This document shows positions 49,405 to 53,713 of a DNA stretch of 64,000 bases, in pieces. The translations under genes were made by a program, and so were the position numbers. Where the stretch lies: assembly GCA_001796285.1 (NCBI GenBank), contig MGMD01000002.1, forward strand, positions 5,929 to 69,928, in the 5' to 3' direction. The stretch is from Chlamydiae bacterium RIFCSPLOWO2_12_FULL_45_20 (GTDB lineage: Bacteria; Chlamydiota; Chlamydiia; Chlamydiales; SM23-39). Positions within the stretch are counted from its first letter, which is position 1. Each line of letters opens with the position of its first letter. The notes under the pieces were generated by a model. It saw only the letters and a program-made list of their open reading frames with translations, was not told the DNA's origin and did not search any database.

Positions 49405-49619
49405 TTCGTATGTTGGATGATTTAATCAGGGGGCAAGAACAAAAACTCTGGGAAACGGCCCGTAGGATCGTTCCCCATATCACGCCTGATGATCTTTTGC
49501 AGCCAAACGATTTTCCTAAGCTCGAGATGAACCCCTATTTTCGACATGAAGAAGGAATTTTGGATGGACTGAGGATGGCCAAAGCGGCGCTCCAAGCTGA
49601 GAAGATGTCTACTTTGTAA
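49401..49619 (+). CDS. Small hypothetical protein coupled to tadA
   Basis: The 72-aa ORF has an ATGA overlap with the tadA stop. Its 3' end overlaps the convergent GT gene by 11 nt. Confidence 0.45.
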   Translation: MIRMLDDLIRGQEQKLWETARRIVPHITPDDLLQPNDFPKLEMNPYFRHEEGILDGLRMAKAALQAEKMSTL

Positions 49620-50295
49620 ACACCCTCTGAGTCCGAATGATGAATTTTCCGTGGTAGCCGTGCCAGTGTAAGATAGCAGCATCGCTTCTTTCTTCAGAGC
49701 GGCGGCTCCAGTTATAAATGGGTGGAAGTTCGTCGATTCTGATGTTGCGCTCACCAATCATGTGGGAAAAGACTTCTTGATCGCCGCGAAATGTTTTATT
49801 TTTAAGATAGCACCATTCTGCCCAACATTGTAGAAGAGGGTGGTTGTTTCGAAAAGCGATGACACCGGAATTGTAGAGTGGGTATTGGGCGAGATAGGGG
49901 TTTTGTTCCAAGGCCATGGCGAAGTGACTTGCGTATTCAAAAAGAGGGGTAAGGGGGGCCTTTACCTCGCAGTCAACGTCGATCCAAAGGGTTTTTGCAA
50001 AAGGTGATTGGAGACATGCCAAAGGTTTTTTGAACCAAGCGTTACGGGCCTCTACGAATTGTAGGCCTGCCTCGCATTCCCATTGCTTTTTCATGTCTGG
50101 AGCGGGGTTTTCGGCAAAATCGACGACTCTTAGAGGAATGAGCTTGCCCCGTTCCCTGCACCATTTCTTTTTTTCATAAGACAGGCCGAGATCGATGAAG
50201 GCAACAGGGAAGGTGTTCCATTGTCGATAGCGTTCCCACCACCACGGAAGAGCCCACTCAAGGGTTTGATCAGACCCAACGATGATTCCATTCAT
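49609..50295 (-). CDS. GT-A fold glycosyltransferase (GT8-like), paralogue A
   Basis: Motifs are LEWALPWWWERY, the DxD-like LWIDVDCEV, YNSGVIAFR, GDQEVFSHMI and ILHWHG. It is a paralogue of 52973..53713. Confidence 0.6.
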   Translation of the reverse strand: MNGIIVGSDQTLEWALPWWWERYRQWNTFPVAFIDLGLSYEKKKWCRERGKLIPLRVVDFAENPAPDMKKQWECEAGLQFVEARNAWFKKPLACLQSPFAKTLWIDVDCEVKAPLTPLFEYASHFAMALEQNPYLAQYPLYNSGVIAFRNNHPLLQCWAEWCYLKNKTFRGDQEVFSHMIGERNIRIDELPPIYNWSRRSEERSDAAILHWHGYHGKFIIRTQRVFTK

Positions 50296-50298
50296 GGG

Positions 50299-52257
50299 TC
50301 AAGCCAGCCACTTATAGCGTAAAATCTTGCTTTGGATGGCCTCAAAAGCGCTTTTTGTAATGTTTGGGCAATCTCGTATGGATAGAATCATGAGGTTTTG
50401 ATTAGCAGATAAAAGGGGGATGAGTCCTGCATCGGTAATGTGCTGTAAGTTTGAAAAGTAAATCGCGTTCAAATTCCTTTGCGTTTTTGCCAACTTTTGT
50501 AAATCTTCATCGCTGAGTTTTGACGCACCTAGCTGTAGAACTCTTAATGAGGGGAGGTTTTGGATCCAGTCCAAGGTCATGTGAGGACAGTCAATGGCTT
50601 TGAGATGGACGAGATGGGGTAGGTTTTCCCAGCCCGCAGAGGAGATATCGTCCAGGCCATCTAAGTAGAGCTTTTCGATGTTTGGGCAGAGTTGGAGGAA
50701 AGAGGCGATTCCTTGATTGGTTATAAGGAGGCATCCGTCCAGAGAAAGGGAGGAGAGGTTTGGGTGTTTTTTGGCTATTTCCAGAAGCATAGCATCTGTC
50801 ATTTTTAAAGAGTTTGTAAAATCAAGATGCATCGAGCACTCTATTTTTTCAGGAGGTATTTCAGAATAATAGGTGTCTAATGAGGCAAAAAACTCTTCTG
50901 TTTTTTTGCGAAGGGAGGTTCCCTCTACAATGCGGTTTACTGTTTCATCAGGATCTTTTTCTAAATGATAGAGGCACTCTTTTTCATCGCTTACGATGTA
51001 TTTCCAGGGGCCTTCTCGGCACCCTTTGGCTGGGGTATCGAAGGGATGGCTAAAAAAAATAGGGGCGTTGGAGGGGTAAAGAAGACTTTTCCCTAAACTT
51101 TGGTGGGGGGTATGGATGTGTAAAAGGTCAAGCAGAGTGGGAAGTAGATCCACTTGAGAGGAAAGGGTGTCGATGGTTCTTGGCCGATCTATCCTTCCTT
51201 CAGCAAGGATCAGCAGTGGAACGTGTATATTGTCTTGGTAAAGATCTCGATTCACTTCAAAATGAGGCCCACGATCTTCGAGTTGCTGCCCGTGATCCCC
51301 GTAAATGAAGAGGATGCTTTTTTTCAGAAGGTCACCATCGGCAAGGGCATCAATGAGGATTTGAAGCGCCTTATCGGTGTAGGCGAAGGTATTGAGAAAT
51401 CCATGTTTTTTTTCTGGGTGAATCCATGGATGGTGATTGGTAATCGTGTAGAGATTGAGGAAAGTGGGGACTTTTTGGGTTTTCAGCCACAAAGCGGCTG
51501 TTGTCATGAGATGTTCGTCATAAATGCCCCAGCTTGTCCCTGGCTTTGCGATGTTTCTTTTTCCTAAAATGGTCTGAAAGCCGTGCTTTTCAAAGAACTC
51601 TGCTTCGTGGTCAAAGGCTGTGGAACCTCCTTGGATAACCGTTGGATAGTAGCCATGTTTTGCCAGTAGGCGGGGCAGCCCAACCAGAGGGAGGTCGGCG
51701 TAATGACCTAAATGCCAGGGCTCATGGGCTGGAGGAACCCCGCATAGAGTGGAGAGGATGGAGCGGTTGGTTAAATTGCCGGTAGCGTGGAAGTTTGTAA
51801 ACAGAAGGCCCCTTTTGGCGAGTCGATCAAAATGGGGGCTTAACGCTTGTTTTGCTCCCAAACAGCCGACATTTTTGGCTCGGAAGGATTCTAAACTAAT
51901 GAAGAGGATGTGCGGTTTATCTTCTGTATGGATGTCAAAAAGCTTCTGGCCTTGGGGGACGGAAATTTGGAATGGAAAGGAGGAAGCTAGGTTTTTTTTT
52001 CTTTTTCTTCGAAAGAGGAGCCAGAGCGGATGGGGCCATTTTGTCACGAGTATGCATGGGATAGAGAACCAGGGAAACATCCAGAGGAGAGGGGCTAGAA
52101 GAAGCAAGAGAGACAATATTTTTTTGCCAGAGCTAAAAAAACTCCATGGGTTTTTTAACAGTTGAAAATGGGACCGTTGGAGTCGAATGCGATACTTGAG
52201 GAATAGAATGGAATCACTCACGCAGTAAAGCGCAATGAAAACAAGGATTCGCTTCAT
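50299..52257 (-). CDS. Membrane-anchored alkaline-phosphatase-superfamily transferase (LtaS/OpgB/EptA fold) fused to C-terminal eukaryote-type cysteine-containing LRRs
   Basis: It has N-terminal TM helices, then PHILFISLESFRAKNVG...FHATGNLTNRSILSTLCG...IYGDHG (PF00884-like). The last ~175 aa are ~25-residue repeats of the form L..L.L.GC..IT..G (..PNLSSLSLDGCLLITNQGIASFLQLCPNIEKLYLDG.., ..LSIRDCPNITKSAF..). Confidence 0.7.
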   Translation of the reverse strand: MKRILVFIALYCVSDSILFLKYRIRLQRSHFQLLKNPWSFFSSGKKILSLLLLLAPLLWMFPWFSIPCILVTKWPHPLWLLFRRKRKKNLASSFPFQISVPQGQKLFDIHTEDKPHILFISLESFRAKNVGCLGAKQALSPHFDRLAKRGLLFTNFHATGNLTNRSILSTLCGVPPAHEPWHLGHYADLPLVGLPRLLAKHGYYPTVIQGGSTAFDHEAEFFEKHGFQTILGKRNIAKPGTSWGIYDEHLMTTAALWLKTQKVPTFLNLYTITNHHPWIHPEKKHGFLNTFAYTDKALQILIDALADGDLLKKSILFIYGDHGQQLEDRGPHFEVNRDLYQDNIHVPLLILAEGRIDRPRTIDTLSSQVDLLPTLLDLLHIHTPHQSLGKSLLYPSNAPIFFSHPFDTPAKGCREGPWKYIVSDEKECLYHLEKDPDETVNRIVEGTSLRKKTEEFFASLDTYYSEIPPEKIECSMHLDFTNSLKMTDAMLLEIAKKHPNLSSLSLDGCLLITNQGIASFLQLCPNIEKLYLDGLDDISSAGWENLPHLVHLKAIDCPHMTLDWIQNLPSLRVLQLGASKLSDEDLQKLAKTQRNLNAIYFSNLQHITDAGLIPLLSANQNLMILSIRDCPNITKSAFEAIQSKILRYKWLA

Positions 52258-52961
52258 CGGTTTTTATTGGGTTGGTAGAGCCAGTAGTATTTAAAGGGAT
52301 CAGCTTTTAATGTTTCAAAAGCTCGGATATTGCCTGATTGGACGAGTTTCCAATTATGAAAGAGGCGGTCGTAGGCGATAGGGGAACGGTACGTAGCCCA
52401 ATATAGCGGAATGGATGCAGGCACTGGCTTTTTGACATTCCCTGTTGGGTCAAGGGTATGCGTCGTTGCAGCACAGGATTCTCGAAAAAAAAGATGCCCA
52501 TCGGGTTGGAGCCACAGATGAAGTTTTTGGATGAGGGATTGGACCTCGCTATCTTCAAGATACATGAAAACCCAACTGATGAAGATAAGATCAAAAGACT
52601 TTTCCTCAAAAGCCGCATCCATCACATCTGAGAGGAGCCATTCAATATTGGTACATTCTTTGGCTCTTTTTTTGCTCTCTTCAATAAATTGTGGACACAC
52701 GTCCAAAGATACAACCTTTTTGGCACAGCACGCGAATTCCTGAGTAAAGCGACCGATTCCGGCACCGAGATCTAAGATGACTTTGTGTTTTAAAGGGGGC
52801 AGTAAGCTTACAATTTCAGGTCGTTCTAAGGCGTCGAGCTCTTGCGCTTCAGCGTTTAAAAACATTGAATAAAGTTGGGCCGGCTTGGTTTTCCAGTAAT
52901 TTTTTGCTTGCTCTCGTCCCATGGTAAACCTATATTTTAAAAAATGTACAGAGTCCAGCAT
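52254..52961 (-). CDS. Class I SAM methyltransferase resembling the plant/nematode phosphoethanolamine N-methyltransferase domain
   Basis: Motifs are KNYW..., ERPEIVSLLPPLKHKVILDLGAGIGRFTQEFA, FDLIFISWVFMYLEDSEV, WLQPDGHLFFRESC and ...YYWLYQ. An alternative start is ATG 52922. A 4-nt overlap links it to the downstream gene. Confidence 0.7.
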   Translation of the reverse strand: MLDSVHFLKYRFTMGREQAKNYWKTKPAQLYSMFLNAEAQELDALERPEIVSLLPPLKHKVILDLGAGIGRFTQEFACCAKKVVSLDVCPQFIEESKKRAKECTNIEWLLSDVMDAAFEEKSFDLIFISWVFMYLEDSEVQSLIQKLHLWLQPDGHLFFRESCAATTHTLDPTGNVKKPVPASIPLYWATYRSPIAYDRLFHNWKLVQSGNIRAFETLKADPFKYYWLYQPNKNR

Positions 52962-52972
52962 AAGATAGCAAA

Positions 52973-53713
52973 ATGACAGGAAAGGATCGAGGAGTATTTG
53001 TCGCTACAGATGAGGTGCTTGAATGGCTTCTTCCTTGGTGGTGGGGGAACTATTCTGAAACGAATAAGCTGCCTGTGTGTTTTGGGGATTTTGGCATGTC
53101 GGATCGCGCGAGAAGATGGTGCCAGGCCAGAGGTCTTTATGTACTTATATCGTTAGAGCACCTTCGAATGGCAGACAAAGAGCGAATAGGCTCCGCTCGA
53201 TTGCAAGAGTGGGAAAAGAACTTAAGTCCTTTTTGGGGTTCTAGGGGGGCTTGGTTTAAAAAGCCTTTTGGGATGCTCGCGAGTCCTTTTGAGGAGACTC
53301 TTTGGATGGATCTTGACTGTGAAGTCATGGGCGCGATTGAGCCGGTGTTTGAGCACTTAAAATCCTCTTTTTGCTTGATGAAACTGAGAGAAGAGGGGAA
53401 GAAGGTGCTTTATAATAGTGGAGTGGTCGTATTTCGAAAGGGCTCTCCAGTGCTTCCAGTCTATGCGGACTATGCGATGCGTTACAACCATAAATTTTTG
53501 GGTGATCAAGACGCTTTATCAGAGCTTATTTATAAAAAGAAGTTTCAGGTAGACTCTTTGCCGGATATTTATAACTGGCAGATGTGTCGAGGATTGAACA
53601 TCGCTGCGAAAATTCTCCATTGGACGGCAGGTTGGGGAAAGGAATATATTCGGAGGTATGGAGGGCTTCGGCACCGCCTAGCCTGCTCCCTGCATCCAGG
53701 AATGCGCGTATGA
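52973..53713 (+). CDS. GT-A fold glycosyltransferase (GT8-like), paralogue B
   Basis: Motifs are LEWLLPWWWGNY, LWMDLDCEV, YNSGVVVFR, GDQDALSELI and ILHWTAGWGK. Confidence 0.6.
   Translation: MTGKDRGVFVATDEVLEWLLPWWWGNYSETNKLPVCFGDFGMSDRARRWCQARGLYVLISLEHLRMADKERIGSARLQEWEKNLSPFWGSRGAWFKKPFGMLASPFEETLWMDLDCEVMGAIEPVFEHLKSSFCLMKLREEGKKVLYNSGVVVFRKGSPVLPVYADYAMRYNHKFLGDQDALSELIYKKKFQVDSLPDIYNWQMCRGLNIAAKILHWTAGWGKEYIRRYGGLRHRLACSLHPGMRV

Follow-up and report, generated by a model that had tools for sequence, protein, structure and literature searches.

The enzymes of the LtaS/EptA class are drug targets as well as resistance determinants. In LtaS of Staphylococcus aureus the Mn ligands are Glu255, Thr300, Asp475 and His476, and glycerol-phosphate touches His347, Arg356 and His416 (PMC9131456). 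PptA of Neisseria, a member of the alkaline-phosphatase superfamily, adds both phosphoethanolamine and phosphocholine to pilin; the source of its phosphocholine is unknown, and methylation of the transferred phosphoethanolamine by an enzyme of the PMT type has been suggested (PMC10434233). Here we describe a gene of Chlamydiae bacterium RIFCSPLOWO2_12_FULL_45_20 that can be set beside these systems. It is an open reading frame (ORF) at positions 50299-52257, on the minus strand, of a 64,000-nucleotide stretch of contig MGMD01000002.1, the whole of which we call the window, and it joins a membrane anchor and an LtaS-type catalytic domain to seven leucine-rich repeats (LRRs). We propose that its product is a repeat-guided, possibly inverted, head-group transferase of LtaS type, encoded together with a methyltransferase that resembles the MT1 half of phosphoethanolamine N-methyltransferases (PEAMTs). 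In the literature we found no account of this family, and none of a sulfatase-LRR fusion or of LtaS in Chlamydiae, nor of a PEAMT in bacteria or in Chlamydia.

An LtaS-type domain fused to leucine-rich repeats

A first, sequence-only reading of the ORF had described an LtaS-type catalytic domain behind an N-terminal membrane anchor, continuing in one frame into about seven repeats of the F-box/LRR type at 50299-50835. The frame is indeed open over 652 codons without interruption, and its features are as follows (TM, transmembrane; AF2, AlphaFold2).

50299..52257, minus strand: transferase-LRR ORF, 652 amino acids and a stop codon, with membrane anchor, LtaS-type catalytic domain and seven LRRs
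52198..52248, minus strand: hydrophobic segment 1, residues 4-20, counterpart of TM3 in the five-TM members; a helix at residues 2-22 in the AF2 model
52120..52197, minus strand: conserved basic loop, residues 21-46, with seven Lys or Arg; family motif IRLxPSxF...SFxSSxK
52045..52119, minus strand: hydrophobic segment 2, residues 47-71, with a conserved central proline (P62); counterpart of TM4
51916..52044, minus strand: basic linker, residues 72-114, with RRKRKK right behind the last hydrophobic segment
50863..51915, minus strand: catalytic domain of alkaline-phosphatase fold, residues 115-465, with a sulfatase-like C-terminal subdomain
51769..51771, minus strand: codon of Thr163, the predicted catalytic nucleophile
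50302..50838, minus strand: seven cysteine-containing (FBXL-type) LRRs and a C-terminal cap, residues 474-652, without an F-box

The 3.5 kb from 49500 to 53000 lie on single contigs in four independent groundwater or soil metagenome assemblies, with no differences and no gaps, and neither a frameshift nor a join is seen at the junction of the two domains. Given that these four assemblies are identical and that dozens of orthologues are likewise fused, the junction did not arise in assembly. The AF2 model of the 652-residue protein scored well (predicted local distance difference test, pLDDT, 88.6; predicted TM-score, pTM, 0.81), and the latter value suggests that the catalytic and LRR domains are held in a fixed arrangement.

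Both motifs that had been cited for the catalytic domain are present, LESF within ISLESF (residues 120-125) and TGNLTNRS within ATGNLTNRS (residues 158-166), and the Pfam Sulfatase model (PF00884) covers residues 115-381 with E=2.3e-45. A Foldseek search with the AF2 model gave VP1736 (3lxq), LtaP and LtaS as the best matches, at target-normalised TM-scores of 0.71-0.75, whereas true sulfatases scored lower (0.50-0.62); a profile of the family matched the PDB sequences of LtaP and LtaS with E=2.6e-37 and 1e-35, respectively. In the profile alignment with Listeria LtaS, Thr163 falls on the catalytic threonine (the family has Thr in 35 of 36 sequences and Ser in one), LESF faces LESF, GDHG faces GDHY and NHHPW faces NHFPY. 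The metal ligands E123, D321 and H322 and the equivalent of His416, H275, are invariant across the family. Since these four residues and T163 match, the metal and nucleophile set of LtaS is retained together with the His416 equivalent. The formylglycine motif of sulfatases, C/S-x-P-x-R, is absent, and GNLTNRS occupies the nucleophile position.

The remainder of the head-group pocket is different. The position of LtaS His347 is Gln in 27 of 36 family members, that of Arg356 is Glu, Gln or Gly and basic in none, and that of Trp354 is Asp in 32 of 36. Given that His347 and Arg356 are replaced and that an Asp is conserved, the head group would be a different one, possibly amine-bearing, and is probably not glycerol-phosphate. 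Among the NCBIfam models, the LtaS equivalog gave 49 bits against a cut-off of 970, OpgB gave E=1e-7, and EptB (E=0.037) and MCR-12 (E=0.075) both remained hundreds of bits under their cut-offs. By these scores the earlier label of an LtaS/EptA-type enzyme holds for its LtaS part, but the protein is nearer to LtaS and OpgB than to EptA. The domain thus reads as an active-looking transferase of the LtaS/OpgB branch, with a predicted head-group pocket that is unlike that of LtaS and compatible with a cationic (amine) head group.

The seven repeats, of 22-26 residues each, start at residues 474, 500, 526, 548, 570, 595 and 621 and are followed by a capping strand, and the AF2 model shows eight beta strands at regular spacing over this region. 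The consensus cysteine (L..L.L..C..IT) occurs only in repeats 2, 4 and 7. A single-sequence phmmer search of the PDB matched human FBXL2 (E=2e-14) and FBXL17 (E=3e-9), and the family profile matched FBXL2 (4e-43) and FBXL17 (8e-34), then SKP2, TIR1, COI1, RAD7 and FBXL5, so that the assignment to the F-box/LRR type is borne out. An exhaustive search restricted to the LRR region returned 8,697 cluster representatives (E<=1e-3), of which the best outside the family were LRR_6/FBXL-type proteins, eukaryotic ones among them; the exhaustive method was used because a word-index search with this region gave no matches, which reflects a limit of that method. The single-repeat LRR models of Pfam stayed below threshold on the 652-residue protein (best, LRR_14, E=1e-3). 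As the PDB, profile and exhaustive searches were decisive, we do not take these scores as evidence against LRRs. No F-box family was found at E<=0.1 in the Pfam scan of the protein, in which the enzyme occupies the region before the LRRs, and no further LRR protein of FBXL type is encoded elsewhere in the window. The repeats may tether the enzyme to a host or envelope partner, as had been put forward.

The architecture is conserved. The full-length query retrieved about 90 protein clusters with the same combination of catalytic domain and LRRs, a precomputed LRR Pfam match being carried by 51 of the 89 top clusters; the named homologues are annotated as 'sulfatase-like hydrolase/transferase' and come from metagenome-assembled genomes (MAGs) of Rhabdochlamydiaceae, Chlamydiia or Chlamydiales. 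Among contigs taken from one genome per species, 32 loci had a match that extended into the LRR region, all of them from Chlamydiota (the best 63% and 59% identical), while Simkaniaceae, Planctomycetes and Gammaproteobacteria matched the catalytic domain alone. The LRR-bearing transferases are a conserved family confined to environmental Chlamydiota. The chlamydial origin of the DNA agrees with the earlier remark that this LRR class is found in amoeba-associated bacteria. The fusion had also been called unusual; it is real and uncharacterised, but it is no one-off, being common in this group.

Three forms can be told apart. The clade of the window protein has about 650 residues and a 115-residue anchor with two hydrophobic segments; a second and larger group, with 750-880 residues, has about 200 N-terminal residues with four to five TM segments, followed by the LRRs; and chlamydial paralogues of about 655 residues have five TM segments and no LRRs. 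By alignment with the five-TM forms, TM1, TM2 and TM5 have been lost from the short form, in which the counterparts of TM3 and TM4 remain. Its two hydrophobic segments, which lie 26 residues apart across the basic loop, are therefore homologous to TM3 and TM4 of a polytopic domain. Identity in the LRRs falls in step with that in the catalytic domain, from 41-63% against 63-70% in the near clade to about 18-30% against 37-45% in the most deeply branching ones, and for this reason the fusion looks old and stable and under purifying selection. This looks unlike the birth-and-death pattern of the chlamydial F-box/BTB-LRR effectors.

Some chlamydial MAGs carry tandem copies of the LRR-bearing gene (locus L002, 7833-12778; L022, 6592-9944). 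Tandem paralogues with no methyltransferase nearby were also seen in loci of Simkaniaceae type (L025, 7278-12969; L032, 2498-8265; L037, 7764-13643; L057, 7764-13703), where an LRR-less five-TM paralogue, a multi-TM transporter and a longer C-extended paralogue lie together; the transporter was judged by eye to be sodium:neurotransmitter-symporter-like. Outside the Chlamydiae, three LtaS-like PF00884 proteins (P0094, P0109 and P0112) are fused to tetratricopeptide repeats, and on account of these fusions repeat-guided enzymes of the LtaS class are not unique to the phylum.

Membrane orientation and the operon

The orientation of the protein was predicted from the positive-inside rule, for which Lys and Arg were counted in the loops around TM segments placed by a simple hydropathy script. 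In the cleanly resolved five-TM members of the family, with or without LRRs, 10-16 such residues lie on the side of the catalytic domain and 0-3 on the other, with 4-7 of those on the catalytic side sitting right behind the last TM segment. Summed over the whole chlamydial family, the counts are 635 on the catalytic side and 290 on the other. The planctomycete and gammaproteobacterial relatives have 4-10 against 5-10, the conventional 'LTA synthase family' matches sum to 125 against 141, and the N-terminus of S. aureus LtaS, an approximate control counted by hand, has 8 against 11. The rule appears to hold for a Na/Ca exchanger that is also encoded in the window, since its charges alternate as expected. 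Because the bias is the reverse of that of LtaS, the catalytic domain and the LRRs are predicted to be cytoplasmic in the chlamydial clade, a placement that we regard as somewhat more probable than the opposite one. The earlier description of the enzyme as extracytoplasmic had been assumed, and the charge distribution of the family makes it questionable. In the AF2 model of the short form, hydrophobic segment 2 consists of a helix at residues 37-60, a break, and a helix at residues 62-70; the proline at this break is conserved in all short-form sequences, and the segment could cross the membrane once or form a re-entrant hairpin.

The most informative context of the transferase, a PEAMT-like methyltransferase gene and two flanking GT8-like genes, was absent from the sequence-only reading.

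52254..52961, minus strand: single-domain S-adenosylmethionine (SAM) methyltransferase, PEAMT MT1-like, 235 amino acids; its stop codon overlaps the start codon of the transferase (ATGA)
49609..50295, minus strand: GT8/glycogenin-like putative glycosyltransferase, downstream of the transferase after a 3-nt gap
52973..53713, plus strand: divergent paralogue of the GT8-like gene

Given the ATGA overlap and the 3-nt gap, the methyltransferase, the transferase and the downstream GT8-like gene form a tight operon. The methyltransferase matched PMT2 (E=1.4e-39) and PMT1 (1.4e-38) of Arabidopsis thaliana, PMT1 of Haemonchus contortus (2e-32) and PMT1 6wlf (1e-28) in the PDB, and among its 25 PDB matches at E<=1e-5 there was no bacterial phospholipid N-methyltransferase. 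The alignment with AtPMT2 spans residues 16-165, includes the SAM motifs and sets NYW against the (N/S)YW region of the catalytic tyrosine; the MT2 half is absent, and with it the di-domain architecture. The protein is about as similar to the MT1 domains of plant and nematode PMTs as these are to one another, and this closeness suggests gene exchange between eukaryotes and Chlamydiae.

In 13 loci, that of the window among them, homologues of the methyltransferase, some of them distant, adjoin the LRR-bearing transferase: in six on the same strand upstream, directly or with one gene between, in five divergent and adjacent, and in two one gene downstream. This pairing was seen with LRR-bearing members only. 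A methyltransferase was found within 2.5 kb in 11 of the 32 loci whose transferase has a C-terminal extension, against 1 of the 29 without. In three loci of Rhabdochlamydiaceae type, a membrane-anchored protein of the Exo_endo_phos (EEP) family is encoded beside the methyltransferase gene (L013, 113-1321; L014, 5981-7165; L053, 3793-4989). The EEP family includes sphingomyelinases and phosphoinositide phosphatases.

The GT8-like paralogues, of about 230-246 residues, belong to a family of 628 members, nearly all from Chlamydiae, all annotated as 'hypothetical' and without a Pfam model. A profile of 34 sequences matched glycogenin-1 (E=1e-3) and the Skp1 alpha-galactosyltransferase (E=0.03) over a DxD...NSGV...GDQ core. 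As an AF2 model built from a two-sequence alignment was unusable (pLDDT 39), the assignment goes back to that marginal profile match, and the identity of both genes as GT8-type retaining glycosyltransferases is accordingly marginal.

The operon lies among housekeeping genes (PNPase, FtsH, TilS, an aminoacyl-tRNA synthetase, thymidine kinase, TamB, Omp85 and 2-oxoglutarate dehydrogenase). Other genes that recur near the family are less consistent (rhomboid, alanine racemase-like, TauE, EEP-family phosphoesterase and GT2); the rhomboid, alanine racemase and TauE genes and the tadA-rpsO flank were considered as partners and judged to be general synteny rather than functional. A scan for promoters and terminators gave no signal above chance, and a search for RNA sequencing runs returned none. 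Anti-phage defence was rejected, since PADLOC returned only a generic methyltransferase-domain match to mad2 and none for the transferase or the glycosyltransferase-like proteins. Elsewhere in the window, the FtsH homologue at 40698-43421 (plus strand; 907 residues) has about 340 residues between two TM segments (residues 31-373); the periplasmic loop of Escherichia coli FtsH is far shorter, at about 70 residues. The 601-residue class II aminoacyl-tRNA synthetase at 43852-45657 (minus strand) combines a tRNA-synt_2 domain (Asp/Lys/Asn type), an anticodon-binding domain of oligonucleotide-binding fold and a C-terminal tRNA_edit domain of YbaK type, and is syntenic in L012, L016 and L024. Two ORFs at 58465-59556 and 59531-60820 (both minus strand) lie in tandem and match the Legionella major outer-membrane protein family (PF05150) and are followed by a 373-residue ORF without a Pfam match.

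A proposed function and its alternatives

We tentatively propose, giving it a little less than an even chance, that the protein is an inner-membrane-anchored transferase of the LtaS/OpgB branch for phosphoethanolamine or N-methyl-phosphoethanolamine phospho-forms, whose LRRs select the acceptor, probably a protein. First, metal-activated Thr163 would attack a membrane phospholipid at its phosphodiester, so that diacylglycerol leaves and a phospho-alcohol remains on the threonine. Rather than glycerol-phosphate, the head group would probably be phosphoethanolamine or one of its N-methylated forms, phosphocholine included, and it would then be passed to an acceptor, most likely a protein, held on the surface of the LRRs; the seven-repeat solenoid would serve as the module for acceptor recognition, or for docking of a partner. 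The co-translated methyltransferase would add the N-methyl groups before transfer, to the donor, or after it, to the head group. In this scheme the catalytic and LRR domains would face the cytoplasm, in the same compartment as the methyltransferase and the GT8-like enzymes. The identity of donor and acceptor, the membrane topology and the direction of methylation are all what we infer from the comparisons above.

Several points weigh against this proposal. The S. aureus numbering of His347 and Arg356 was carried over by a HMMER alignment to Listeria LtaS and by motif identity, and the Asp at the Trp354 position also occurs in VP1736, whose function is unknown. A methyltransferase stands beside only about one-third of the LRR-bearing loci, and PEAMTs use soluble phosphoethanolamine, not lipids or proteins. 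A glycan could also be the acceptor, given the glycosyltransferase genes on either side of the operon. The cytoplasmic placement has as its sole basis the positive-inside rule, for which TM segments were placed by a crude hydropathy script; the counts in the short-anchor form of the window, 2/7/7, are ambiguous, and this form would need segment 2 to be a re-entrant hairpin if the basic loop and the catalytic domain are to share a side as in the long forms. Finally, every characterised membrane-anchored relative known to us (LtaS, OpgB, EptA, PbgA, BcsG and PptA) is extracytoplasmic, and a cytoplasmic one would to our knowledge be unprecedented.

In the alternative that survives best, and which we nevertheless think unlikely, the orientation is conventional and periplasmic catalytic and LRR domains decorate an envelope glycan, be it the lipooligosaccharide core, a glucan like the osmoregulated periplasmic glucans or another polymer. 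The phospho-alcohol would then come from an outer-leaflet phospholipid, the LRRs would dock to a periplasmic or outer-membrane protein, and the lipid donor would be methylated before flipping. The longer members do follow the LtaS plan of five TM segments, linker and alkaline-phosphatase domain, and the characterised relatives are, as far as we know, all extracytoplasmic, but the reversed bias of the clade is strong, at 13-16 against 1-2 in the clean five-TM members with 5-7 charges right after the last TM segment, and to move that many charges across a membrane would be unusual. In favour of this alternative are also the ambiguous pattern of the short form and the case of PbgA, which shows that anionic lipids can be bound by basic residues on the periplasmic face. 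While the GT8-like and GT2-like neighbours suggest glycan assembly, the partner enzymes of the locus are cytoplasmic, and LRRs of the FBXL type with free, conserved cysteines are otherwise found in cytosolic proteins.

A second alternative keeps the cytoplasmic orientation and makes the enzyme a hydrolase akin to phospholipase C, which would split phosphatidylethanolamine into diacylglycerol and phosphoethanolamine; the PEAMT-like enzyme would methylate the latter towards phosphocholine, and the LRRs would regulate or scaffold. Soluble phosphoethanolamine is the substrate of PEAMT MT1 (PMC10434233), bacteria otherwise lack a source of it in free form, the two genes are translationally coupled and product and methyltransferase would meet in one compartment. 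Such a route gives no reason, however, for a conserved domain of seven repeats rigidly fused to the enzyme, and no genes for the use of phosphocholine (cytidylyltransferase, LicD or Pcs) were seen in the window or among the recurrent neighbours. Furthermore, nematode MT1 alone performs the first methylation only, in the division of labour between PMT-1 and PMT-2. We consider this reading improbable.

Slightly more improbable than that is a type III effector directed at the host, in which the short form would sit in the inclusion or a host membrane with its domains in the host cytosol, acting on host lipids or on a host protein bound by the LRRs. Chlamydial families that combine F-box, BTB or RING domains with LRRs are indeed type III effectors, within a phylum that has hundreds of LRR proteins (PMC4209131), and the nearest relatives of our LRRs outside the family include eukaryotic F-box-type proteins; no F-box is present here, and the gene shares an operon with enzymes of metabolic type, amid housekeeping genes. 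The two hydrophobic segments are loosely reminiscent of Inc proteins, but at 26 residues apart they form no bilobed hairpin, and the anchor corresponds by homology to TM3-TM4 in a five-TM domain that is also found in non-chlamydial LtaS-like proteins. Nor is there a birth-and-death expansion, the gene being stably orthologous and in single copy per locus, with LRR conservation that tracks the enzyme.

A true sulfatase, an inactive pseudoenzyme or a two-gene artefact of assembly or annotation can be dismissed as highly improbable, despite the Pfam name 'Sulfatase', homologues called 'arylsulfatase A-like' and a C-terminal subdomain that resembles choline sulfatases: the missing C/S-x-P-x-R, the Thr in an LtaS-type G-x-x-T motif and a fold nearer to LtaS and LtaP argue against a sulfatase, the catalytic residues are all conserved, and four identical independent assemblies and dozens of equally fused orthologues speak against an artefact.

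Significance and comparison with known systems

How bacteria that lack the Lic pathway come by the phosphocholine on their proteins is an open question (PMC10434233), on which the operon bears. If an inward-facing transferase and a methyltransferase do act together, they would be a genetically linked route of transfer plus methylation, which has been proposed but never found for phosphocholine on proteins of bacteria, and the operon is of interest as a small set of genes with which the origin of N-methylated phospho-forms on macromolecules of bacteria can be tested. In its boldest form, which we think distinctly unlikely, the proposal would make this protein the first of the LtaS/EptA class to face inward, working with a eukaryote-derived methyltransferase of the PMT type to put phosphoethanolamine to phosphocholine on a protein chosen by the LRRs. 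The view of what the class does would be widened by a branch that combines a reversed charge bias, changed contacts to the head group and an integral solenoid for protein binding. The locus would also place eukaryote-like modules, the FBXL-type LRRs and a PEAMT MT1 domain, within the core envelope or lipid metabolism of Chlamydiae, beyond secreted effectors.

LtaS and LtaP (PDB 2w5q, 4uoo and 4uop) share with the chlamydial enzyme the alkaline-phosphatase/sulfatase fold (target-normalised TM-score 0.67-0.75), the aligned Mn ligands, Thr nucleophile and His416 equivalent and, in the longer chlamydial members, the five TM segments; the shared chemistry is predicted to be transfer of a phospholipid head group through a phospho-Thr intermediate. 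Unlike these enzymes of Firmicutes, the window protein belongs to a chlamydia of Gram-negative type without lipoteichoic acid, has two of the five TM segments, C-terminal LRRs and a reverse Lys/Arg bias, and lacks His347 and Arg356. The closest solved structure is that of VP1736 from Vibrio parahaemolyticus (3lxq; E=3e-24 by single sequence and 5e-48 by profile, and closest also by fold), an uncharacterised protein that shares the F-D motif at the Trp354 position of LtaS. It differs in having no LRRs and in a Ser at the aligned nucleophile, where the chlamydial family has Thr. PptA, EptA, EptB, EptC and MCR belong to the same superfamily and take their head group from a phospholipid donor, and PptA in particular is a functional model for the chlamydial transferase. 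In contrast to it, with its catalytic domain predicted to be cytoplasmic, these enzymes are periplasmic, have no repeat domain and no known dedicated methyltransferase, and their similarity in sequence is remote.

For the repeats, the counterparts are FBXL2, FBXL17, SKP2 and TIR1, which have the same cysteine-containing LRR subtype as a substrate-binding domain. Those eukaryotic proteins carry an F-box, whereas the chlamydial LRRs are fused to a bacterial enzyme, and in the absence of an F-box the transferase has no link to SCF ubiquitin ligases. Within the phylum, the F-box, BTB or RING-LRR effectors NEX1 and PEX1 (Domman et al. 2014, PMC4209131) have LRRs of the same general eukaryote-like class. 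They form large, fast-expanding families of secreted proteins (PMC4209131), in contrast to the single-copy, stably orthologous and membrane-anchored transferase. Finally, the partner methyltransferase aligns over about 150 residues with the MT1 domain of AtPMT1 and AtPMT2 (5wp4 and 5wp5) and HcPMT1 (4krg), at E=1e-39 to 1e-28, but unlike these plant and nematode enzymes it is a single-domain protein of a bacterium.

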